DNA from: Polaromonas sp.
GTDB taxonomy: Bacteria > Pseudomonadota > Gammaproteobacteria > Burkholderiales > Burkholderiaceae_C
Direction: 5' to 3'
NCBI GenBank assembly: GCA_031414215.1
Contig: JANNVB010000049.1
Span: 14,862-78,861 of the forward strand
DNA length: 64,000 nt
This document shows, one piece after another, positions 2,014 through 18,517 of the stretch. The position numbers and the translations under genes are program-made. Under the pieces are notes generated by a model. The model was not told the origin of the DNA and searched no databases. It saw only the letters and a list, made by a program, of their open reading frames with translations. The first letter of the stretch is position 1; every line of letters begins with the position of its first letter.

Positions 2014-3809
2014 TATTTATTCTTCCCAGATGCCCACCAAGTCGACATGGCCCAAATACCCGCATCGTAGTAAGGCGGGATAGCAGCTGGCAACACAAAC
2101 TGCCCCGGCCTGTAGCCAATCAAGAATGCGTCGCCGTAATACTGCGGCACAGAGTAGTGGCCATGTGTCAGCACCCGGTCCAGCGCGCGCGTGGCGGCTG
2201 ACAAATCAGGCCGCGTGGTGGCCGTTACTATTTTTTGCAGCAGCGCATCCACCGCCGGGTCGGCAATGCCCCAAATGTTGGACGAACCCGGCGTTTTGGC
2301 GGCTTCAGAGCCGAAACGCTCGATCAATTCACCACCCGGCGCTGTAGAGCCCGGCAGGCGCGCGGTGGTGATTTCAAAGTCAAAGGCATCCATTTTTTGT
2401 TTGCTCAATGAAAAGTCAACCACCCGATACACCAGTGTGATGCCCAGCTTTTCAAGCGCTTTTTGAAACGGCCCAACTACACGAATCAGCGATGGCTGGT
2501 CGCTCAAAAACGTCATCGTGAACGCTTCGCCCTTGGCGTTGCGCAGCGCGCCGTCTTTGTAGACCCAGCCGGCATCTTTCAGCAGCGCCTGGGCCTTGCG
2601 CAGGTTGTCACGCAGGCTGGCAGGTGGTGCGGTGCTGGCACCCACGGGCACAGCGCCAAAAACTTCCGGCTTTAATTTATCGCGCAGTGGCTCCAGCAGC
2701 GCCAACTCGTCTGGCTTGGGCAAACCTTCGGCATGAAACTCGCTGTTCGGAAAGTAGCCGTTCACGCGCTTGTAAATGCCGTAAAACAGCTGGCGGTTCA
2801 TCCATTCAAAATCAAGCGCCAGGCCAATCGCTTGACGTACCCGCACATCTTGAAACTTCGGGTTGCGCAGGTTGAACACATAGCCCTGAAAGTCGCCGGG
2901 GTTGCGGTTTTCAAACGCACGCTTGACCAGCTCGCCCGATGTGAACTGCTTGCCGGTGTACTGCCGGGCCCAGTTGCGCGAAATGAATTCACGCATGAAG
3001 TCATATTCGCCGGCTTTCAGCCCCTCAAAACGCGAGGTTTCGTCAAGGTAAATCTTGAACGTAATGCGGTCGAAGTTGAATTGCCCTTTGCGCGTCGGCA
3101 AATCTGCTGCCCAGTAGTTGGGGTCACGTACATAAGTGATGTCGCGGCCCATTTTGTTGTTGGGCAGTTTGTAGGGGCCAGAACCGATGGGAATGTCGGC
3201 CACGATTTTGTCGAAGGGTCTACCCCCACCCCACTTGCTGCTGAACACCGGCATACCGCCCACCACCAGCGGCAGTTCGGGGTTGGGAGTTGCAAAGTCA
3301 AAGCGCACCACGCGGTCACTGACAACAACAACGCCTTTGACTTCGGCATAAATGGTGCGGAACTGCGGCGCGGCCAGCTTGCTGACCAGTTGCGTGTACG
3401 AATGCAGAACGTCGGCGGCCAAAACGGGCGAACCATCATGAAACCGTGCTTTGGGGTTGAGCCTGAAGGTGGCGGAAAGCTTGTCTGCCGCCACCTCCAC
3501 ATCTTCAGCCAGCAAGCCGTAGGACGTGGTGGGCTCCTCGCTATTACCCACCAGCAGGCTTTCAACCATCAACGTGCTGATGCCGTAAGGCGATGTACCG
3601 CGCAGGGTAAACGGGTTGAACTTGTCAAAGTTGGTGGGCCGGGTTGGCGGCACCATGCGGATTTCTCCGCCCTTGGGTGCTGCGGGGTTCACGTAGCTGA
3701 AATGTGTGAACCCGGCTGGGTACTTGATGTCGCCAAACTGGGCGTACGCGTGCGCTGCCCAGGTGCTTGAACAGGCCATCAACAGTAAAAAACTCAGCAC
3801 AGTGCGCAT
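2013..3809 (-). CDS. ABC transporter substrate-binding protein, family 5 (YejA-like)
   Basis: The track ORF 2013..3824 starts at TTG. ATG at 3809 gives the signal peptide [21 protein letters not shown]. About 600 aa, typical of peptide/nickel/opine-type SBPs. 1-nt TAATG overlap with the permease gene. Confidence 0.85.
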
Positions 3810-3846
3810 GTCACAATTCTGCAAGATTTTTCATAAGGAATACGTC

Positions 3847-4635
3847 ATGGGTTTTTTAACTGGCAAAAAATTATTGATTACTGGTGTGTTGAGCAACCGC
3901 TCGATCGCTTACGGCATCGCCAAAGCGTGCAAGGCTCAAGGCGCTGAGCTGGCTTTTGCCTATGTGGGCGAGCGTTTCAAGGCACGCATCACCGAGTTTG
4001 CGGCAGACTTTGACTCGACCCTGATTTTTGACTGCGACGTGGGCAGCGACGAGCAAATTACTCAACTATTCACCGACCTGGCCAAAGTTTGGCCCAAGTT
4101 TGACGGTTTTGTACACAGCATTGGTTTTGCGCCCAAAGAAGCGATTTCAGGCGACTTTCTCGAAGGCTTGTCGCGCGAGGGCTTCAAAATCGCCCACGAC
4201 ATCAGCGCCTACAGCTTCCCGGCGATGGCCAAGGCTGCCCTGCCCTACCTGAATGACAAATCAGCGTTGCTGACGTTGACCTACCTGGGCGCGCTGCGCG
4301 TACTGCCCAACTACAACACCATGGGCCTGGCCAAGGCGAGTCTGGAGGCATCGGTGCGCTACACGGCTGAATCACTGGGCCCCAAAAACATTCGCGTCAA
4401 CGGCATTAGCGCCGGGCCCATCAAAACCCTGGCGGCTAGCGGTATTGCAGGCTTTAGTAAAATATTAGGCGCGGTAGCAGCCGCTGCACCGATGCGCCGC
4501 AATGTGACGATTGAAGAAGTCGGCAACGTGGCCGCGTTTTTAATGAGTGACCTGGCCAGCGGCGTAACGGCTGAAATCACCTATGTCGATGGTGGCTTTA
4601 GCCAGGTGGTGGGCGGGATTGCTGAATCCGCCTAA
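3847..4635 (+). CDS. fabI: enoyl-[acyl-carrier-protein] reductase (NADH)
   Basis: [27 protein letters not shown] nucleotide-binding N-terminus. Y-x6-K region [34 protein letters not shown] at 3847 chosen inside the longer track ORF 3706..4635. Confidence 0.9.
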
Positions 4636-4642
4636 ATCTAAG

Positions 4643-4711: not shown

Positions 4712-5821
4712 ATGATTTCTGTCCCAAACGCCTTCTCCAGCAGCTACGCACAGGCCAGAGTCAAGTTTTTAGAAGCTGCGGCCATCGCTGGCTTGCAGGT
4801 TCAGTCACACGCGCACCCACTCAAGGGCCGTGACGGTGAAGACTTGGCGATGGACGTGGCGCGTGATGGCGCACTTGGTGCTGAGAATTTGCTCATCGTC
4901 AGCAGCGCCTGCCACGGGGTAGAAGGCTATTGCGGCAGCGGCGTGCAGGTGCATGCGCTGCACGATGCGGAGTGGCTTGCAAAATCCCGCGCATCTGGCA
5001 CAGCGGTTTTGTACATCCATGCGCTCAACCCGTATGGTTTTTCTCACATCCGCCGCACGACGCATGAAAACGTGGACTTGAACCGCAATTTTCAGGACTT
5101 CACCAAGCCCCTGCCCGACAACGCCGCCTACCGCGCTTTGGAGCCGCTGATATTGCCCGAAGCCTGGCCGCCGACTGCAGACAACGAGGCCGCCATTGCA
5201 GATTTCATAGCTACAAACGGCCAGTTGGCCTATCAGTCAGCCATCACCCAAGGCCAGCACGAATTTGCCGACGGCCTATTTTACGGTGGTAACAGCCCAA
5301 CCTGGAGCAACCAGACCCTGCGCGGCGTGCTGCGCCAGCATACAAAATCCGCCAAACGCATCGGCTGGATAGACCTGCATACTGGCCTGGGCGCCAGTGG
5401 CCACGGCGAGCGTATTTGGGCGGGGCGTGATGATGCCGTAGCTGTGGCGCGGGCCAGAAGCTGGTGGGGTGGCGGCAAAGACGGCAACGCGGCCACGCCC
5501 ATCACGTCGATTTACGACGGCTCATCCACTTCTGCTTTTTTAACCGGCCTGATGTGGCATTCGATCTACCAGGAAGCGCCCCAAGCCGAATACACGGGTA
5601 TCGCGATGGAATACGGCACCGTACCCGTGCTGGACGTGCTGGGCGCTCTGCGCGCCGAACACTGGCTGAACAACCACCCCAATGCACCAGCAGAGCTGGC
5701 AAGCCAGATCAAGGCGCAAATGATGACCGCGTTTTACACCGACACCGACCTGTGGCGCGGCCAGATCATCAGCCAGGCGCGCCAATCGATGTTTCAGGCG
5801 GTGGATGGGCTGAGTTCTTGA
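4712..5821 (+). CDS. M14-type zinc carboxypeptidase-like protein (DUF2817-like)
   Basis: 369-aa ORF. HxxE zinc motif in SSACHGVEGY and a later His in IDLHTGLG, as in the M14/succinylglutamate-desuccinylase fold. The family name is from memory only. Confidence 0.55.
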   Translation: MISVPNAFSSSYAQARVKFLEAAAIAGLQVQSHAHPLKGRDGEDLAMDVARDGALGAENLLIVSSACHGVEGYCGSGVQVHALHDAEWLAKSRASGTAVLYIHALNPYGFSHIRRTTHENVDLNRNFQDFTKPLPDNAAYRALEPLILPEAWPPTADNEAAIADFIATNGQLAYQSAITQGQHEFADGLFYGGNSPTWSNQTLRGVLRQHTKSAKRIGWIDLHTGLGASGHGERIWAGRDDAVAVARARSWWGGGKDGNAATPITSIYDGSSTSAFLTGLMWHSIYQEAPQAEYTGIAMEYGTVPVLDVLGALRAEHWLNNHPNAPAELASQIKAQMMTAFYTDTDLWRGQIISQARQSMFQAVDGLSS

Positions 5822-5921
5822 AGCTTTGGATGCTGGCAAATGCGTCAAATACCCACTGTCACAAATGGGTCTTGAGAAGAGATTAGATTGATCCTCTAAC
5901 TTTTTTTATGGAGCTTTTCAA

Positions 5922-6278
5922 ATGAATACTCTAGAAATCGCGCAAGCCTTTACCGACCTGTGCAAAAAAGGAGAGTTTGAGGCGGCTGGCAAACAATACT
6001 GGTCAGACGAAATCGTCTCCTGCGAGCCGCAAGCGGGCGACATGTCAGAGGTCAAAGGGCGTGCAGCGGTAGAAGCCAAAGGCGCCTGGTGGTATGCCAA
6101 TCACGAGATCCACAGTGTCAAAGTTGAAGGCCCGCACGTTCATGGCCACCAGTTTGTGGTGCGCTTTATCATGGACATCACGCCCAAAGGCGCAAACCGC
6201 ATGACCGCAGATGAGATGGGCGTGTATACCGTGCTGGAAGAAAAAATAGTCGAAGAACGGTTCTTTTACGGGACTTGA
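5922..6278 (+). CDS. SnoaL/NTF2-like small protein, function unknown
   Basis: 118-aa ORF with an SD-like GGAG upstream of the ATG. Sequence character MNTLEIAQAFTDLCKKGEFEAAGKQYWSDE... resembles SnoaL-like domain proteins. Confidence 0.45.
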   Translation: MNTLEIAQAFTDLCKKGEFEAAGKQYWSDEIVSCEPQAGDMSEVKGRAAVEAKGAWWYANHEIHSVKVEGPHVHGHQFVVRFIMDITPKGANRMTADEMGVYTVLEEKIVEERFFYGT

Positions 6279-6406
6279 GCGGCATTGAAGAGCTGCGCGT
6301 CTTGAACTGAAATAAACCGAAACATTTCGCCACCGCCCAGACAAGATTTCTATGCGCCCGCCGGGCACCATTGAGGCTTCTTAACAACGCCTTTAAAGGA
6401 CGCATC

Positions 6407-7671: not shown

Positions 7672-8985
7672 ATGAAAAACAACAACAACCAACCCAAAAG
7701 CTGGCTGCACCGCCTGGGGCATTCATTGCGTTTGCGGCTGTTGCTGCTTTTTTTGCTGCTGGCCCTGGCCATGAGTGCGGCTTTTATTGGCGGCACCAAA
7801 AAAGCGTTTTCAACCGGCTGGCGCGAGGCCGTCAAGCCGCTGCTGACGGATTACGTGGACAGGCTGGCGGCAGATATGGGTTCGCCACCTGATGCGCAAA
7901 AAGCCAGATTACTGGTAGGGCGCCTGCCCATCTCAGTGCGGATTGAAGGCCCGGCAACCCAATTTGACTCGCACCCCAATCGCCCCTCGGACAAGTGGCA
8001 GCAAGACAACCGCGACTATGGCTCGGGTGAGACAAACCAGAACTTTCTAAAACGTAAAACACCTGACGGCCACACCATCACCTTCGGGCTGGGCAACATG
8101 GAATGGCGGCGCGGGCCCGACATGGCCGGCTGGCTCACGCTGGCGATGCTGCTGGGGCTGACGGCGCTGGCCTTTGCCTATGTGCGCCGCCTGTTCAAGC
8201 CACTGGACGACATTGGCGCGGGGGTGCAGCGCTTTGGCGCAGGTAACTTCAGCCAGCCGATTGCCGTGCGTAGAAGTGACGAGTTGGGCGACCTAGCCGG
8301 GCAAATCAACACCATGGGCCAAGAAATTGCGCAAATGCTGGACGCCAAACGCGCCCTGCTGCTGGCCATCAGCCACGAGCTGCGCTCCCCCCTGACCCGT
8401 GCCCGCCTGAACACCGAGCTGCTGCCCGAAACCGGCGACACCCAAGACCAACGAAGCGCCCTGCTCCGCGACCTGGCCGAAATGGCGCAGCTGATTACCG
8501 ACCTGCTGGAAAGCGAACGCCTGAGCGGCAGCCATGCGGCACTGAACCTGGAGCCGACTGACCTAGGTGAGCTGGTGCAGGAAGTGGTTGCAGGCATGAG
8601 CAACTCCGCTCCGCTACAAATCAAGTTTGATGCAGATTTACCGCGGCTGCAACTGGACCGTACCCGCATCAAGCTGCTGCTGCGCAACCTGCTAGACAAC
8701 GCCCAGCGCCACGGCCAGGGGCCGATTGACTTGAATCTGAGCCGCGCTGGCAACGACCTGCTGCTAACCGTACGCGACCACGGCCCCGGCATCCCGGCAG
8801 ACCAACTGCCCCAACTGGGCCAAGCCTTCTTCAGGCTAGACACAGCCCGCCAGCGCAGCACAGGCGGTGTGGGGCTGGGCCTGTACCTGTGCCGCCTGGT
8901 GGCCATGGCGCATGGTGGGGAGTTGGTGCTTGAAAACGCCGAGCCGGGGCTGCGAGCTTGTGTACGGCTACCAGTCGCTATATAA
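7672..8985 (+). CDS. sensor histidine kinase (TM-HAMP-HisKA-HATPase)
   Basis: H-box SHELRSPLTRA. N, G1 and G2 regions (LLDNAQRHG, DHGPGIP, GGVGLGLYLC). The last two codons plus the stop (GCT ATA TAA) lie inside the hairpin of the following repeat. Confidence 0.9.
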   Translation: MKNNNNQPKSWLHRLGHSLRLRLLLLFLLLALAMSAAFIGGTKKAFSTGWREAVKPLLTDYVDRLAADMGSPPDAQKARLLVGRLPISVRIEGPATQFDSHPNRPSDKWQQDNRDYGSGETNQNFLKRKTPDGHTITFGLGNMEWRRGPDMAGWLTLAMLLGLTALAFAYVRRLFKPLDDIGAGVQRFGAGNFSQPIAVRRSDELGDLAGQINTMGQEIAQMLDAKRALLLAISHELRSPLTRARLNTELLPETGDTQDQRSALLRDLAEMAQLITDLLESERLSGSHAALNLEPTDLGELVQEVVAGMSNSAPLQIKFDADLPRLQLDRTRIKLLLRNLLDNAQRHGQGPIDLNLSRAGNDLLLTVRDHGPGIPADQLPQLGQAFFRLDTARQRSTGGVGLGLYLCRLVAMAHGGELVLENAEPGLRACVRLPVAI

Positions 8986-9187
8986 ACCGTAGCTGCTTGC
9001 GCTCGTATTTATTGGTCTTGAGCCCTAAATGAGCACCTAAAACAGCTGAAAAAGCGGTTTTTGTAGGTGCTTCAAGCCCTGTTTTGGCTTGAAAGCAGGT
9101 TTGAAAGGCAAAAAAGGCCGATTTTTACCTGCCAAATTGGCCTACATGCCAATGAATACGGGCGAAATCAGCTCCTGAATTTATAGC
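8977..9187. mobile_element. Family-A repeat, full-length ~210-bp MITE-like copy with inverted ends
   Basis: Left end gctatataaaccgtagcTGCTTGCGCTCGTATTTATTGG (8977-9015). Right end CCAATGAATACGGGCGAAATCAGCtcctgaatttatagc (9149-9187). Internal hairpin gcacctaaaa...ttttgtaggtgc. No ORF. Confidence 0.8.
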
Positions 9188-9489
9188 GCCTAAATGACCT
9201 GACGCGTTTGCCATTCAAGCCAAAACCTTCCGTTTATCGGGCGTGCTGTGCGACATTTTGCAAGCTATAGTCAAAGTGACCAAACAAGCAGACCACGCTG
9301 GCTGACCTCAACCAGGTCAGCAAACAGCAAAACCAGCTTGCCGGGTTTCACGGAATTTTTAAACCGCTAAATAAACAGATCGATGCCTTGAAACCCAACA
9401 GGCAAGCCAGTTTCAGGAGATTTTGATGTCCAGATTATGTTGCAGCGCCATTTTTTTCCTGAGGGTTTTACGTTGCAAATTAAGTAAGC

Positions 9490-10224
9490 GTGCACATGTT
9501 GACTAGGGATGAAGTTCTAAATGAAATTCGGCGTGTCGCTGCCGAAAACGGCGGCGTGGCTCCGGGTAAGGTGGCGTTCCTGACAGCGACCGGTATACGT
9601 GAGTCAGATTGGAGCGGACGTATCTGGACGACATGGAGCGCGGCAGTTCGCGAGGCTGGCTTAGAACCCCAGAGAATGAATCCACGCCTGCAAGACGATG
9701 TCGTCCTCGATGCCGCCGCTCAAATCGTCCGGAAATATGGTCGCTTTCCTACTGCAGTGGAAATTCGTTTTGAATGCAAGGCGGGTTCCGGACTTCCAAG
9801 TCACAACACGTTCCTTCGTTTCGGGGGTCTTGGCGGTCTGCGTACTCGCCTCTGTGAGTTTGCGCGTGAGCGAGAGCAACACGACATACTTTCCTTACTT
9901 CCGAATCAAACTGAAGAAATGGACGTCACGGGTTCAGAGCACGATGACATCAGCGATAAAGCACTTGTCGAGGGATTTGTTTACCTCATCAAATCTGGGA
10001 GGCACTTTAAGATTGGCAAGGCAAATTCTGTCGAATCGCGGCACCGACAACTGAAAATTCAATTGCCACAGGCGGCCGCAGTAATTCACAGAATCCGGAC
10101 AGATGACCCCTTCGGCATAGAGTCATACTGGCATCGCAGGTTCGCTGACAAGCGGTTGAACGGCGAGTGGTTTGCTCTCTCGGGAGAAGATATCAAGCTA
10201 TTCAAACGTAGAAAGTTTATGTGA
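9490..10224 (+). CDS. GIY-YIG/T5orf172 (MUG113)-like nuclease-domain protein with two N-terminal homing-endonuclease-associated-like repeats
   Basis: C-terminus GFVYLIKSGRHFKIGKANSVESRHRQLK...ESYWHRRFADKRLNGEWFAL fits the GIY-YIG/T5orf172 pattern. The N-terminus has two similar units (LTRDEVLNEIRRVAAENGG.. and DDVVLDAAAQIVRKYGRFPT..). GTG at 9490 or ATG at 9496. Sampled lines are ~45-50% G+C versus >60% in neighbouring genes. Confidence 0.65.
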   Translation: MHMLTRDEVLNEIRRVAAENGGVAPGKVAFLTATGIRESDWSGRIWTTWSAAVREAGLEPQRMNPRLQDDVVLDAAAQIVRKYGRFPTAVEIRFECKAGSGLPSHNTFLRFGGLGGLRTRLCEFAREREQHDILSLLPNQTEEMDVTGSEHDDISDKALVEGFVYLIKSGRHFKIGKANSVESRHRQLKIQLPQAAAVIHRIRTDDPFGIESYWHRRFADKRLNGEWFALSGEDIKLFKRRKFM

Positions 10225-10276
10225 CCCAATTTTTGCCAGGTAATCCCTCAGCCGAAGAAACAATTGGAGAAACAAC

Positions 10277-10306
10277 GGGGGGCAAACTCCAATTGATTTC
10301 AAAACC
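10277..10306 (+). repeat. Family-B repeat fragment (GGGGCAAACTCCAATTGATTTCAA)
   Basis: ggggggcaaactccaattgatttcaaaacc. 24/26 identical to 12609-12634. Related to the GGGTCAGACCCC palindrome at 34305. Confidence 0.7.
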
Positions 10307-10338
10307 AGGTCGGCGTGCAGGTCTGCAACCGCCGAATA

Positions 10339-10457
10339 CTATCTAAAACGTAGCTGCTTGCACGCGTATTTATTGGTCTGGAGCCCTGAATGACCATCAA
10401 AAACAGCTGAAAAAGCGGTTTTAAAGCCTGCTTCACCCCCCAGTTTTGACTTGAAGC
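10339..10457 (+). repeat. Family-A repeat, left half-element (~120 bp)
   Basis: ctatctaaaacgtagcTGCTTGCACGCGTATTTATTGGtctggagccctgaatgacc...cagctgaaaaagcggtttt... aligns over ~100 nt with the left arm of 8977-9187, in the same orientation. Confidence 0.8.
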
Positions 10458-10635
10458 GTCATCCGTTTACAAAACCGACCTGGCATCTGCAAGCAAACAC
10501 CAGTCGCCGCCGATGTCGAATCCGTAGCTACAAAAACATTGGAATGCTCATCAGTAAATCCCCTCTGGAGGGTCACGCTGAGTCGTGTTAATTTGGCGAT
10601 TGGATTCCCTTCAACCTCCCACATCACCCCATAAC

Positions 10636-11955
10636 ATGACGCAACTCCCTCGCACCCCACTGGCCCTGATGGGCGCTTCACTGTTGTTTCTGGCGGGTTG
10701 CGCCGCTGTGCCGACTACCCCGCCCGAGGCGGCTCCAGTCAAGCAGGCCTGCCCTGCCGGTGTGCCAGCCGGTGCAAGCTGCCTGCGGGGGCAAGACTCT
10801 GCTACGGCGCACTACCTTATCGTGATGCCAGCCAAATGGAGCGGCGTACTGGTAGTGCATGCCCATGGCGGGCCTGTGCTGGGCGAGCCCAAAACCACCC
10901 GCTCCGATGAAGACATCATGCGCTGGGGTGTCACCGTCAAAGAAGGGCATGCCTGGGCGGGCTCGGTGTTTCGACAGGGCGGCTTTGCTGTGACCACGGC
11001 TGCCGAAGATACCGAGCGTGTGCGCCGGATTTTTGTTGACCATGTGGCCAAACCGCGCGTGACCTTGCTGCACGGGCAGTCGTGGGGCGGCATGGTGGCC
11101 ACGCGGGCGGCCGAGATGTTTCCCAAATCGTGGAACGGTATGTTGCTGACGAGCGGCGTGGTGGCAGGGCCAGCCACCTACGACTTTCGGCTGGACTTGC
11201 GTGCAATCTACCAGCACCTTTGCGGCAACCTGCCGCTGGCTACCGAGCCCGCCTATTCACTGGCCGTTGGCTTGCCCGCCGACAGCAAGCTGACCAACGC
11301 AGAGATTGTGGCTAGAGCAGACGAATGCCTGGGCGTGCGAAAGCCGGCCGCCCAGCGCACGCCCCAGCAGGCGCAAAAGCTCAAAACCATTGTGGATGTG
11401 CTCAAGATTCCCGAAAGCTCGGTGGTGGGCCACCTGAACTGGGCTACCTTCACGCTGCGCGATGTGGTCACCAAAAATGGCGGCGTCAGCCCGTTTGGCA
11501 ACGAGCGCGTGCGCTATGTGGGATCAAATGACGATGCGGCGCTCAATGCCGCCGTGCAACGTTTCAAGCCCGACCCAGCCGCCGTAGCGCGGTTTGCCGC
11601 CGACGTTGACCACGCCGGGCGCTTTGCCGTGCCCGTGGTCAGTGCGCACGGTATTGGCGACGCAACAGTGTTTGTAGAGGGCAGCGACACGCTGCGCCAG
11701 CGTATGGCAGCGGCTGGCAACGGCCAGCGGCTGGTACAAAACTTTGTGGATTCAGCTGAGCACAGTTATTGGGGCGATGCCTACTACCCGCCGCTGTTTA
11801 ACGCGCTCTTGACATGGGTTGAAAAGGGCCAAAAACCCACACCGGCAGGCATTGCCGCCAGTTGCCTGCAGCAACCAGGCGCTGCCGCCAAAGACTGCCA
11901 GTTTTTGCCAGACTACGTGAACAAACCTTTAGCCTCACGCGTCTTTGTGCGCTGA
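10636..11955 (+). CDS. alpha/beta-hydrolase-like lipoprotein, substrate unknown
   Basis: ATG 10636 gives MTQLPRTPLALMGASLLFLAGC (lipobox). HAHGGP and nucleophile elbow GQSWGG. The track ORF starts further upstream at 10585. Confidence 0.5.
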   Translation: MTQLPRTPLALMGASLLFLAGCAAVPTTPPEAAPVKQACPAGVPAGASCLRGQDSATAHYLIVMPAKWSGVLVVHAHGGPVLGEPKTTRSDEDIMRWGVTVKEGHAWAGSVFRQGGFAVTTAAEDTERVRRIFVDHVAKPRVTLLHGQSWGGMVATRAAEMFPKSWNGMLLTSGVVAGPATYDFRLDLRAIYQHLCGNLPLATEPAYSLAVGLPADSKLTNAEIVARADECLGVRKPAAQRTPQQAQKLKTIVDVLKIPESSVVGHLNWATFTLRDVVTKNGGVSPFGNERVRYVGSNDDAALNAAVQRFKPDPAAVARFAADVDHAGRFAVPVVSAHGIGDATVFVEGSDTLRQRMAAAGNGQRLVQNFVDSAEHSYWGDAYYPPLFNALLTWVEKGQKPTPAGIAASCLQQPGAAAKDCQFLPDYVNKPLASRVFVR

Positions 11956-12009
11956 GCCATGCTGATGGGGCTGTAGTCGCAGGCAGCCCTCGCGCAACTC
12001 AGGCCCGAT

Positions 12010-12429
12010 TTACGTCGACCCTTCAATGACCGTGCCCGAGGCCAGCAGCTCGTCAATGCGGGCCATGACCTGCAGGCCGGTTTGGGAGTAGGGGTCGAAC
12101 TCGGGCCAGACGATTTTGGTTTCGGGGTCCACGTCTGACAGGCTCACATGGGCCATGGACCAGTTTTCGTACCGGCGCCTGGCAATGCTTTCACAGTGGA
12201 TCATTTCCACATTGGCATGCCGCTTGTCAGCATAAATGCGCGCATACAGCTGGGTAACAGTGCTGCGCTCGCCCTCAAGCGCCTGCAGGTAAACGCCCTG
12301 GCCCTGGCATAGCACGCCAGTAATGCCATTGGCCAAGTTGGTGACCTGTGCTTTTCGCAAAATGGCCTGAGCAGTGTCAGCGGTTTGCGTGCCGGCTGCA
12401 CTGCTGATGTAGATAACGCGGATGAGCAT
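12010..12429 (-). CDS. BLUF-domain (blue-light FAD sensor) short protein
   Basis: MLIRVIYISS...NGITGVLCQGQGVYLQALEGERSTVTQLYARIYADKRH matches the BLUF signature. ATG 12429 preferred over GTG 12438. Confidence 0.8.
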   Translation of the reverse strand: MLIRVIYISSAAGTQTADTAQAILRKAQVTNLANGITGVLCQGQGVYLQALEGERSTVTQLYARIYADKRHANVEMIHCESIARRRYENWSMAHVSLSDVDPETKIVWPEFDPYSQTGLQVMARIDELLASGTVIEGST

Positions 12430-12572
12430 GAAAAGCACCTGATGGATGAGAACTGCCTAAGCGAAGCCAACGGTAATTCGGCAGACATTTGAACCGCTGA
12501 CTCGCGCGCAATTGCGATAGCAAGCGTACCAGAGCGGCATGACCCGTTGCTGCAAGAGGTTTTGGAAAGACG

Positions 12573-12612
12573 ATGGGCAAAATAATGGGAAAATAATGGG
12601 AAAATAATGGGG
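12573..12612. repeat. 11-bp tandem repeat (ATGGGAAAATA, about 3.5 units)
   Basis: atgggcaaaata atgggaaaata atgggaaaata atggggg, in the BLUF / phd-doc divergent intergenic region. Confidence 0.9.
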
Positions 12613-12634
12613 GTCAGACTCCAATTGATTTCAA
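12609..12634 (+). repeat. Family-B repeat fragment (GGGGTCAGACTCCAATTGATTTCAA)
   Basis: gggggtcagactccaattgatttcaa. Near-identical to 10277-10306. Confidence 0.7.
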
Positions 12635-12690
12635 TGCGAGGCATTTTTTTCCAAACAAATTGCTTGACCATGAGCCCAGTCGTGTTCAGT

Positions 12691-17736: not shown

Positions 17737-17762
17737 AGCCACCCTTGAGGTGGCTTTTTTAA
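17737..17762. terminator. rho-independent terminator after the tRNA (bidirectional context)
   Basis: Stem gccacc-cttga-ggtggc preceded by an A-run and followed by TTTTTT. Also lies downstream of the minus-strand gene that ends at 17803. Confidence 0.6.
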
Positions 17763-17802
17763 TGGCTTTTTGTTTTTGGCTCAAAACACTCAAGGCTTTA
17801 AA

Positions 17803-18390
17803 TCAAAAGTCGTCAGACGCGATATCAGTTGTTTTACCGGCTTCCGCCGCTTTGATACTGGCAATCGTTTTAGCATTTGCTTGGGAGGCCTTGCTTGGCA
17901 TACTTCCATTTTCAGCCACCGGTATCTGTTGCTGGGTTGGAACTGTAGTCATGAGCTTGCGAAGCTTTGAAACGGAGATGACTCTTTGGCCGTTCTTCTG
18001 CATTTCGCCACAGTTTGACCAAACGAGGCTCCCTGGGCCATTGAAAACCTCAGTAACGTGACCGTCCTTGTCAAGCTGCAAGACGATCAGTTGCTCAGGT
18101 TCAGCGCGAAGACCAACAGATTTGCCTTGTGTTGCCTTGATTTCAACCTGCTTGCCGTTTGGCGCTAGCGCGTCATGAGAAGGACTTGAAGCGCGGTTCA
18201 GGGTGAGGTTGTAACGATACGCCGCCAACACTTCACCGATGCTTCCCACGAGGTGACCGTCTGGTGTGAACGAGCGACCAGGAAAAAGCGCTTCAAATTC
18301 ACCTACAAGTGCATACAGCCTGCATACGAGTTCCGGGACATATTCCGCAGCGTGGGATTCGGTCTTGTTCATGAAGTCAAGTGTATGCAT
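17803..18390 (-). CDS. hypothetical protein with a PD-(D/E)xK-like nuclease motif set
   Basis: 195 aa. Ordered motifs GSIGE ... SHDAL ... VEIKAT (E / D / ExK) and a low-complexity Q/A/S tail. ATG 18390 or 18372. G+C about 54% in sampled lines. Confidence 0.4.
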   Translation of the reverse strand: MHTLDFMNKTESHAAEYVPELVCRLYALVGEFEALFPGRSFTPDGHLVGSIGEVLAAYRYNLTLNRASSPSHDALAPNGKQVEIKATQGKSVGLRAEPEQLIVLQLDKDGHVTEVFNGPGSLVWSNCGEMQKNGQRVISVSKLRKLMTTVPTQQQIPVAENGSMPSKASQANAKTIASIKAAEAGKTTDIASDDF

Positions 18391-18517
18391 TCGTCCGCCG
18401 AAATGACTTTCGTCTTTTGAGTGTGCGGACGCAAAATGGACTAATTAGTGCTGTTAGCGCTTTGCGAAGACCTTTATAAGATTAAAACTGCTGACAAGAC
18501 TGTGTTCACCCATTTCT

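Follow-up and report, generated by a model that had tools for sequence, protein, structure and literature searches.

The window, that is, the whole 64,000-nucleotide stretch of Polaromonas sp. DNA that was analysed, contains an islet of lower G+C: 44-57% over positions 9000-10600, compared with 60-69% in the flanking genes and 55.9% genome-wide. The islet carries a nuclease gene, with a 211-nt MITE-like element (8977-9187) on its left and a solo repeat arm (10338-10457) on its right. The arm sequences on the two sides (8978-9096 and 10339-10457; family D5) lie in direct orientation and are 79% identical over 119 nt. Both the low G+C and the bracketing had been pointed out by an earlier reading made from the letters alone (the sequence-only reading), and both hold. 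The features of the locus, by position, are:

7672-8985, + strand: sensor histidine kinase gene, the conserved left flank (ORF list; 88-94% identity to the closest relative, G046)
8976-9057, + strand: left arm of the complete MITE-like element 8977-9187 (nhmmer arm model, E=7.5e-17)
9109-9188, - strand: right arm of the same element (nhmmer, E=4.8e-15; inverted-repeat pairs)
9189-9326, - strand: possible, weak remnant of intI, from the 5' end of its coding sequence (aligned locally with the N-terminal coding DNA of intI in C51 and C5, z=2.6-3.7)
9327-9475, no strand assigned: integron platform remnant with intI start, decayed LexA-box region and attI-like site (blastn; alignment to C51, C50 and C5)
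9484-9490, + strand: putative decayed 5' cassette core (GTAAGCG, from G|TTAGCT; comparison with homologous cassettes)
9496-10224, + strand: ORF of the proposed cassette, 242 aa (Pfam, family alignment, AlphaFold model, Foldseek, dN/dS)
10235-10244, + strand: putative decayed R'' box of a lost attC (GCCAGGTAAT, from GCCAGCTAAC; comparison with attC sites of homologues)
10257-10309, + strand: second small palindromic repeat (AATTGGAG…CTCCAATT; direct repeat D6 with 12589-12641)
10338-10457, + strand: solo arm in the same orientation as 8976-9057 (nhmmer, E=8e-14; family D5)
10636-11955, + strand: gene for a secreted hydrolase-like protein, the conserved flank on the right (94% aa identity to G046 C28:3894-5210)

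The stop codon of the histidine kinase gene (GCT ATA TAA) falls within the first bases of the repeat arm. Homology of the left flank to G046 stops at 8984 and resumes at 10277, inside the second small palindromic repeat; the solo arm is kept in G046 (orthologous arm C28:3598-3715). The palindromic repeat has 13 copies in the genome, four of which are followed by an arm, and the gap to that arm is 10-15 nt in C5, C40 and C46 and ~30 nt in the window (arm at 10338). It folds as a hairpin (z=-2.85), and an Rfam search of the region gave no match. On the other side of the gene, the right arm of the MITE-like element has a sharp outer end (…TTTATAGC) that abuts the integron platform remnant.

The ORF at 9490-10224 (+) is present and intact. 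The sequence-only reading had assigned it 244 aa; the homologues are 242 aa long and start with MLTK/R, which makes ATG 9496, not GTG 9490, the most likely start. The protein begins with two HNH_repeat modules (~aa 3-59 and 66-125) and ends with a T5orf172/MUG113 GIY-YIG-type domain (aa ~159-240); between them lies a disordered linker (aa 139-157). N-terminal repeats and a C-terminal nuclease domain had likewise been read from the translation. Pfam matches are to MUG113 (PF13455; 1.3e-15, 58.1 bits with a cut-off of 22.3, aa 173-241), T5orf172 (PF10544; 1.6e-7, 32.2 bits with a cut-off of 20), and HNH_repeat (PF18780; 1.7e-6, aa 5-59); the second HNH_repeat, at about aa 66-125, is seen in the family alignment and the model. 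Seven residues (Y163, K172, G174, R182, E209, H213, and E224) are invariant among the 26 aligned sequences. Y163 (the first-motif Tyr), R182, and E224 (the metal-binding Glu), which we take from general knowledge of GIY-YIG enzymes to be the catalytic core, are thus all in place, a point on which the sequence-only reading had let its nuclease assignment depend. In the AlphaFold model of the 242-aa protein (pLDDT 82.7, pTM 0.39), the GIY-YIG α/β fold matches GIY-YIG/T5orf172/MUG113 proteins over 78-87 residues (Foldseek against BFVD, probability 1.0, rmsd 1-3 Å). A whole-model Foldseek search of the PDB returned weak Slx1 matches only and is uninformative, because the model is flexible and multi-domain. 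Searches with the protein against NCBIfam and, by sequence profile, against the PDB gave no match. PADLOC reported only a weak match to PDC-S57 (E=0.0018, 15.9 bits), which falls short of a defence-system model. The dN/dS ratio of the ORF compared with its nearest homologue, L010, is 0.11, and the ORF is under purifying selection. From its Pfam matches, conserved residues, fold, and dN/dS ratio the protein looks functional, and it is probably a modular site-specific DNA endonuclease.

The DNA immediately upstream of the ORF resembles integron DNA elsewhere in the same genome. By blastn, positions 9327-9455 match the intI-start/attI region at C51:3020-2891 (79.5% over 132 columns, E=2e-22), and positions 9373-9488 match a further platform copy at C50:14169-14284 (78%). 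The alignment places the intI start on the minus strand, its ATG now GTG; CTGT-N8-ACAG boxes are found in C51 and C5. The attI-like site in the window ends …TTTTACGTT, with GTT at 9472-9474, and the core …TTGCGGTNNNCATTNNGTT is common to the aligned attI-type platform copies. The adjoining segment 9189-9326 has a clear paralogue at C49:12372-12520 (z=18). A tblastn search with IntI against 9000-9600 found no protein-level remnant, so the intI vestige is limited to the start-codon region and weak DNA similarity. The integrase gene is absent at the window locus and present on C5 (full length) and C51, and arms lie ~18 nt past the intI stop in both of these copies. Platform copies that lack an integrase are several and dispersed in this genome, each adjoining a copy of the MITE-like repeat. 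Only two genes in the genome contain HNH_repeat modules: the one described here, of GIY-YIG type, and one of HNH type at C50:14300-15184. Each is the sole cassette at an integrase-less attI-type platform adjoining a complete MITE-like element, and in each the attC is lost or collapsed. A joint duplication of MITE and platform between the window and C50 was considered and not established; the two MITEs share only 61% identity and are not mutual nearest relatives.

The boundaries of the gene are best understood from its homologues. Homologous cassettes begin G|TTAGCTTGCAC… (L017, L020) or G|TTAGCTGG… (L010, L021), 12-30 nt before the ATG; the G|TTRRRY core site is intact in these four and others, and the window keeps only GTAAGCG and the attI-like GTT. 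After the stop codon, GCCAGCTAAC in L014, L017, L020, and L021 (CCAGCTAAC in L022) opens the attC sites. In L020, an Ottowia MAG (72% aa identity), intI at 3553-4638 (-) is followed by attI and a cassette array; the GIY-YIG cassette starts at G|TTAGCTTGCACC…, 30 nt upstream of the ATG, and ends with attC GCCAGCTAAC…GACGTTAGGC. The R' and R'' boxes of the L020 type are also found in L017, L021, and L022, with remnants in L010 and L014. An attC is present in L020, L021, and L022, and L017 has a candidate attC recognised by eye and unconfirmed by the scan. The strict attC pattern finder missed most true sites; the fold-based scan was validated on the arrays of L020, L036, and L041, and neither method found an attC-like hairpin anywhere in the window. 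In an automatic scan of 83 homologue loci, 11 had intI or an attC on a flank, compared with 1.5% of control windows, and the 11 include all four close homologues (L017, L020, L021, and L022; 62-72% aa identity). In a survey of 80 loci, the G+C of the gene was below that of its flanks in 74 of 78, by a mean of 7 points, as is typical of cassettes. Most of the distant homologues (40-48% identity) have no integron signs; the family is therefore not exclusively cassette-borne.

The nearest homologue shows the same unit at another site. L010 (90% aa identity) shares only 9467-10239 with the window, and is joined at …ATTATG|TTAGCT directly to another attI-type copy, without attC. Paralogues of that copy in the window's own genome lie at C40:55228-55629 and C33:3508-3901. 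The limited extent of the homology and the different attI-type copy indicate that the cassette moved between attI-type sites. Also counting against the cassette reading are the extra ~12 bases between the attI-like GTT (9472) and the remnant of the cassette core (9484), and the result of a promoter search upstream of the ORF, which found no sigma-70-like promoter. As the window has neither an intact attC nor an exact G|TTRRRY core, cassette status there rests on homology and on the decayed boxes.

Taken together, the nuclease gene is best explained as a stranded integron gene cassette at a decayed integron insertion site, a reading to which we give a probability of about 0.75. In this reading, IntI-type site-specific recombination would have brought a single-gene cassette without a promoter, coding for a modular DNA endonuclease, into the attI-type site of one of the integron platforms, of which this Polaromonas genome has several. 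After capture, the platform would have lost intI, the attC and core sites of the cassette would have degenerated, and copies of a MITE-like repeat that is unrelated and restricted to the genus would have come to flank the gene on both sides; capture, decay, and arrival of the repeat presumably occurred in that order. The sequence-only reading had offered, among others, a defence-type single-gene insert that used the repeats as its recombination site. A horizontally acquired single-gene insert is borne out; cassette boundaries and platform homology place the insertion at an integron attI-type site and not at the repeats. The two HNH_repeat modules would provide sequence-specific binding to DNA, with the C-terminal domain nicking or cleaving nearby on its flexible linker. 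The protein may be an anti-mobile-element or a selfish nuclease, serving the host or the cassette itself. Since both HNH_repeat genes lie on integrase-less platforms with attC lost or collapsed, and L010 lies on an attI-type core, such nucleases could even be parasites of integrons: cassette-borne, homing-type enzymes acting on attI or intI, so that they end up next to attI, can dispense with an attC, and favour intI loss. This extension is a long shot.

The gene could instead be a free-standing homing endonuclease gene that cuts a specific chromosomal site in gene-free genomes and is copied in by repair, with the integron features incidental. Its T5orf172 and HNH_repeat domains are of the kind typically seen in free-standing homing endonucleases of phages, PHROG matches agree with this, the segment common to the window and L010 hardly exceeds the ORF, and the gene has low G+C and a patchy distribution. 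A recurrent target, however, is not apparent: no conserved insertion locus, partner, or neighbour gene was found across 80 loci, the most shared neighbour being an integrase-type tyrosine recombinase at nine. The junctions of the close homologues are integron core sites and attC rather than a nuclease target duplicated at a homing site, and the genome has a single copy of the gene. Homing is on balance an unlikely origin.

The flanking repeat is a short, non-coding multicopy element with terminal inverted repeats, as in MITEs. The genome (3.28 Mb) contains 521 cores (up to 4 mismatches) or 633 arms detected by nhmmer, in the form of 24 full elements of ~215 nt with ~40-nt inverted ends and roughly 585 solo arms. 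No target-site duplication was evident in the flanks of the 24 full elements, and the arm consensus has no significant hairpin (z=-1.2). A 330-nt block downstream of the arm in L010 and C40 was considered as a long form of the repeat and rejected, as it recurs only in C40 and C33. Adjacent arms 400-3000 nt from each other form 152 pairs, compared with ~165 expected under random placement; the four orientation combinations are about equally frequent, and spacing is Poisson-like. With ~630 arms and a pair count near the random expectation, bracketing of a gene by arms is by itself no more than chance. The window arms have both sharp ends directed inward, and there is no outward-facing composite around the islet.

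Such repeats could act as portable homology, the segments between arms being swapped by homologous recombination (e.g., after transformation), and the gene could have arrived in this way. The slot upstream of the hydrolase in G046 has a different 416-aa gene between two (+) arms, a vapBC pair is similarly bracketed, and five of the seven synteny break sites relative to G046 (ten boundary coordinates) have a boundary in an arm or within ~60 nt of one (4625/4688, 8984, 10277, 13383/13390, and 17760/18446). This coincidence is not clearly above expectation, however, because arms and indels are both confined to intergenic DNA, and the Poisson-like spacing of the arms also counts against such exchange. 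The right-hand boundary with G046 lies at 10277 and not at the arm, and the sequence between arm and gene is integron platform DNA, which exchange from arm to arm does not predict. Arrival by arm exchange is accordingly rated as improbable.

The distribution of gene and repeat separates the two. Sixteen of the 25 congeneric genomes carry the repeat, which reaches 136 copies in genomes without the gene; the gene occurs in two of the 25, namely the window's genome and one with a distant homologue, and any homologue at all in 4 of 204 genomes of the genus. Members of the protein family are spread over at least 585 species from many phyla, where their contexts are unrelated and the repeat is missing. 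The sequence-only reading had proposed a homing-type nuclease targeting the repeat core or an enzyme mobilising the repeat, and had made either depend on co-occurrence; because the two do not co-occur and the family extends to phyla that have no such repeat, both roles are rejected for the nuclease: it neither mobilises the repeat nor serves as a cutter dedicated to it. The Polaromonas repeats that flank the gene are bystanders, not target or cargo. Some room for a link is left by L010, which is again bracketed by two same-orientation arms, in a different genome. There is also a precedent: ssnA genes are flanked by NTS/SRM hairpin repeats that SsnA cleaves, and 81% of repeat-rich genomes carry the gene (PMC11893778). 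A nuclease of this kind would recognise the Polaromonas repeat as ssDNA or dsDNA and cut the repeat or the DNA close by, and the repeat-gene-repeat unit would be retained as a means of controlling recombination or spreading the repeat. Such a nuclease is nevertheless very unlikely here: co-occurrence falls far from that figure, the protein is a three-module T5orf172 protein of 242 aa and not a 94-aa single-domain one, the arm lacks a significant hairpin, the upstream arm of L010 is there because it is part of a duplicated 400-nt block ending in an attI-type core, and a PF01541 profile search of the genome picked up only UvrC.

Integron cassettes are currently mined for phage-defence and other adaptive genes, and a widespread, uncharacterised family of HNH_repeat plus T5orf172 nucleases now joins the list of cassette-borne functions. 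An attractive but wrong link is removed, in that the nuclease is not the enzyme behind the ~630-copy Polaromonas repeat. The genome of an environmental betaproteobacterium can contain several integron platforms that are scattered, decaying, and interspersed with a MITE-like repeat, and the locus is useful material on integron degeneration and on cassettes turning into ordinary chromosomal genes. A cassette with a GIY-YIG domain was noted earlier in an Aeromonas integron (PMC10609294); in two texts of the integron-cassette literature, GIY-YIG, HNH, and homing terms found no mention.

Among known systems, the protein is closest to the T5orf172/MUG113 branch, which includes phage free-standing homing endonucleases (e.g., that of ICP1) and domesticated derivatives. 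It shares with them the fold, Pfam matches above cut-off, the Tyr…KIG…Arg…Glu-Trp-Phe pattern, and a modular build with a separate DNA-binding part. In contrast to the phage-borne genes, the window gene is chromosomal and integron-borne, and its N-terminal DNA-binding part consists of two HNH_repeat modules. Its architecture appears similar to that of I-TevI with the domain order reversed. With the SsnA/NTS system (PMC11893778) the locus has in common a GIY-YIG-superfamily gene between two copies of a genome-abundant repeat; it differs in the absence of gene-repeat co-occurrence, in domain family and protein size, and in having a ~80-nt arm and 215-nt element without a strong hairpin. MITE-flanked integrons and integron mobilisation units likewise have integron platform DNA directly beside MITE-like elements, whereas in the window the arms do not form an outward-facing composite and only platform remnants are present. 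Compared with integron cassettes and with degenerate chromosomal integrons or integrase-less attC clusters (remnants of the CALIN type), the window has no attC, mutated core sites, and no intI, and its platform is one of several dispersed integrase-less copies, each adjoining the MITE-like repeat. What it shares with them is a single ORF with little flanking DNA, lower G+C, no partner gene, an attI-type sequence upstream of the gene, and close homologues bounded by G|TTRRRY and attC, some of them beside intI (SAM_4 and Phage_integrase).

Across 9000-10600 the G+C content is 44-57%, compared with 60-69% in the neighbouring genes and 55.9% in the genome. This low-GC islet lies between arms of a Polaromonas MITE-like repeat family, at 8978-9096 and 10339-10457, which are in direct orientation and 79% identical over 119 nt. 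The first arm is part of a complete element, and the islet encodes a single nuclease. The sequence-only reading had described the lower-G+C segment, its bracketing by the element and a second same-orientation arm, and an ORF with a GIY-YIG/T5orf172 domain and two N-terminal repeats, all of which are borne out:

8977-9187: complete element of two inverted arms (repeat analysis, nhmmer)
9490-10224, plus strand: nuclease ORF, present in the ORF list of the window
aa 5-59 of the nuclease: HNH_repeat (Pfam, 1.7e-6)
aa 173-241 of the nuclease: MUG113 (Pfam, 1.3e-15)
nuclease: T5orf172 (Pfam, 1.6e-7)

The second N-terminal repeat is visible in an alignment of 26 sequences, in which the C-terminal pattern VYL…KIG…R…E..YWH…GEWF and the residues Y163, K172, G174, R182, E209, H213, and E224 are invariant. 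Because the close homologues are all 241-243 aa long and begin MLTK/R, the likely start is the ATG at 9496 (242 aa). In the AlphaFold model (pLDDT 82.7) a disordered linker (aa 139-157) joins two helical modules to a β-β-α-β-α domain resembling viral GIY-YIG, T5orf172, and MUG113 proteins (probability 1.0, rmsd 1-3 Å); the match among PDB structures, Slx1, is weak. The protein is thus shown to have the T5orf172/GIY-YIG fold and its conserved residues. A search of this genome with PF01541 returned only UvrC, and no promoter-like site was found upstream of the ORF. Relative to the homologue in L010, a metagenome contig, dS is 0.49 and dN/dS is 0.11; the ORF is therefore maintained by purifying selection. 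The HNH_repeat modules would bind DNA sequence-specifically and the tethered nuclease domain would cleave it; the role may be defence against mobile DNA, for which the PADLOC match is weak, or selfish.

Among 80 named loci of nuclease homologues, the gene has a lower G+C content than its flanks in 74 of 78 (mean -7 points). No conserved partner gene was found across the 80, and the commonest neighbour is a tyrosine recombinase (nine loci); Pfam scans of three of these recombinases gave the architecture of integron integrases, Phage_int_SAM_4 plus Phage_integrase. The homologue in L020, an Ottowia MAG, is 72% identical in amino acids and has the following setting:

intI, minus strand
attI, with …CACG|TTGGGC
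cassettes, separated by attC (GCCTAAC…GTTAKGC)
GIY-YIG cassette, starting G|TTAGCTTGCACCGGTAGCCAAGGATG and ending in attC GCCAGCTAAC…GGCGACG|TTAGGC

The 5' core of L020 and the GCCAGCTAAC box recur in L017, L021, and L022, the first of which is a Polaromonas MAG with a cassette-like row of small genes and no intI. Remnants of cassette boundaries persist at two further loci (the 5' core in L010, the R'' box in L014). With an IntI search and a fold-based scan for attC that had been validated on true arrays, integron signs were detected at 11 of 83 homologue loci versus 1.5% of control windows. All four close homologues (L017, L020, L021, and L022; 62-72% aa) are among these 11, and most homologues of 40-48% gave no such signs. 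These comparisons show the window nuclease gene to be of probable integron-cassette origin. More distant Polaromonas homologues (L037, which is C59 of the related genome G014, and L062/L008; 41-45% identity) are directly followed by a gene encoding a product with the N-terminus MTIREILKMGDARLL, by eye a putative peptide deformylase.

The genome holds two intI genes and at least four further dispersed platform or attI-type copies, each adjoining an arm (C-numbers are other contigs of the same genome):

C5:321026-322045: intI, full length
C51:3272-4159: intI, N-terminal part disturbed
C51:3008-4159: platform region with intI
C49:12334-12545: platform/attI-type remnant
C50:14169-14284: platform/attI-type remnant
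C40:55228-55629: platform/attI-type remnant
C33:3508-3901: platform/attI-type remnant

Window positions 9327-9455 are 79.5% identical (E=2e-22) to C51:3020-2891, which spans the intI start codon, the LexA-box region, and attI, and 9373-9488 are 78% identical to C50:14169-14284. In the alignment the intI start codon, on the minus strand, is GTG in the window versus ATG in C51, and the CTGT-N8-ACAG boxes present in C51 and C5 are degenerate in the window. The attI core …GCAGGTYTTGCGGTNNNCATTNNGTT, common to C51, C50, and C33, is shortened in the window to …GGGTTTTACGTT (GTT at 9472-9474). Twelve bases past this GTT, GTAAGCGTGCAC is derived by mutation from the cassette start GTTAGCTTGCAC, and past the stop codon GCCAGGTAAT (10235-10244) is a mutated R'' box, after which attC searches of the window found no attC. 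The window nuclease gene is thereby shown to sit at a putative attI-type remnant. Upstream of 9327, in a stretch with a clear paralogue at C49:12372-12520, similarity to intI coding DNA is weak (z=2.6-3.7) and no protein-level IntI match was found, so that intI is absent at this locus. The intI remnant abuts the sharp end of the arm at 9109-9188, and in both intI-bearing copies an arm lies ~18 nt past the intI stop in the same relative orientation, which makes loss of intI by arm-to-arm deletion plausible. An integron integrase would have captured the nuclease cassette at attI, with intI and attC lost after capture.

The L010 homologue is 90% identical to the window gene in amino acids and 87% in nucleotides. 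Its 400 upstream nt (334-736) match C40:55228-55629 at 78% and C33:3508-3901 at 74%, in a block that combines the final 80 nt of msrA with an arm, ~250 nt, and an attI-type core. The junction between block and cassette is precise (…CAATTATG|TTAGCTGGTATATG). Since homology with the window is limited to 9467-10239 and the upstream DNA is another attI-type block, the two organisms carry the same cassette at different attI-type copies. The arm upstream in L010 is part of the duplicated block and has no independent association with the nuclease. Right after the cassette stop, in the expected place of attC, L010:1495-1540 is a REP-like palindrome, GTAGGTTGGGTTAGCAAAGCGTAACCCGACA. An 88-aa ORF without a Pfam match comes next, and a PIN_3 toxin gene precedes the palindrome.

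In the closest relative, G046 (~89% nucleotide identity), the flanking kinase and hydrolase are present and the islet is absent; homology breaks off at 8984 and is picked up again at 10277. In place of the islet, G046 has small ORFs of the SnoaL, DUF, and glyoxalase types, an ORF of 416 aa flanked by two plus-strand arms, and an IS30-like fragment at a contig end. Several further small genes in the 4-24 kb region distinguish the window from G046:

5813-6304: small genes absent from G046
5922-6278, within the preceding stretch: SnoaL_5 protein, absent from G046
11958-12678: small genes absent from G046
17760-18446: small genes absent from G046

Among these absent genes are also the BLUF gene and a PD-(D/E)xK-like ORF beside tRNA-Ser. 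Identity of the phd-doc pair between the two genomes is only 67%; small accessory genes make this stretch a mosaic. That these genes were swapped by arm-mediated exchange is a minor and unlikely reading: the differing genes often adjoin arms, but arms and indels are both intergenic. The histidine-kinase ORF takes its stop, TAA, from the first arm bases (GCT ATA TAA, 8977-8985); the G046 kinase has a different end (…PVAM*) and no arm at that spot, and the related genome G016 has an arm there. A second small repeat family with palindromic core AATTGGGGTCAGACTCCAATT, often after short tandem units, has 13 genome copies, including two in the window:

10257-10309: second small repeat
12589-12641: second small repeat

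An arm follows in four of the 13, within 10-15 nt in three; the fourth is the first window copy, which lies ~30 nt upstream of the arm at 10338 and within which G046 homology restarts.

Only two genes in the genome encode HNH_repeat modules, the window nuclease and one other:

C50:14300-15184: 294-aa protein, three HNH_repeats plus an HNH nuclease domain

This second gene directly follows an attI-type core (GAG|TTAGGC) that is itself preceded by a complete MITE-like element (C50:13814-14028); the attC of the gene survives in the collapsed form GCCTAACGCGGACGTTAAAA. The region C50:13814-15184 mirrors the window arrangement of a sole cassette at an integrase-less attI-type site. In the related genome G033, the attC preceding an HNH_repeat gene ends GTTAGCC, 5 nt before the ATG. 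Two such nucleases, each the sole cassette at an integrase-less platform, raise the improbable reading that they are integron parasites acting on attI/intI and promoting intI loss. The HNH_repeat modules would bind DNA sequence-specifically and the tethered nuclease domain would cleave it; the role may be defence against mobile DNA, for which the PADLOC match is weak, or selfish.

The repeat core AGCTGCTTGCGCCCGTATTTATTGG occurs 521 times in the genome (up to 4 mismatches), and the nhmmer model finds 633 arms in 3.28 Mb, equally on both strands. Arms have a sharp outer end (GCTAT…) and an inner end that is fuzzy after ~70-90 nt; apart from just 24 pairs that make up complete elements of ~215 nt, all arms are solo. 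Adjacent pairs 400-3000 nt apart number 152 against ~165 expected, with all orientation classes equally common. Arm spacing looks random, so that finding a gene between two arms is nothing unusual here. The repeat family is confined to Polaromonas (1-136 copies in 16 of 25 same-genus genomes, none in 16 genomes from other families of the order). Nuclease homologues occur in 2 of 41 relatives and in 4 of 204 genus genomes, three of these four with a distant or partial match, and repeat-rich genomes lack the gene (G016, 136 copies; G018, 91; G005, 74; G004, 64). The protein family spans at least 585 species of the Proteobacteria, Acidobacteriota, Gemmatimonadota, Planctomycetota, Actinomycetota, Verrucomicrobiota, Bacteroidota, Nitrospirota, and other phyla. 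Homologues and copy number, set against gene presence as the sequence-only reading had proposed, reveal no co-occurrence. The gene is shown to be independent of the repeat, and the suggestions that it mobilises the family or targets its core both fall by the refuting condition that the sequence-only reading had set.

Among published systems, the one nearest to such a link between repeat and nuclease pairs SsnA with NTS/SRM hairpin repeats, and the gene is found in 81% of repeat-rich genomes (PMC11893778). In contrast, gene and repeat do not co-occur in Polaromonas, the arm consensus has no significant hairpin, and the window nuclease differs from the 94-aa single-domain type. The window gene is a probable integron cassette that encodes a T5orf172 nuclease.
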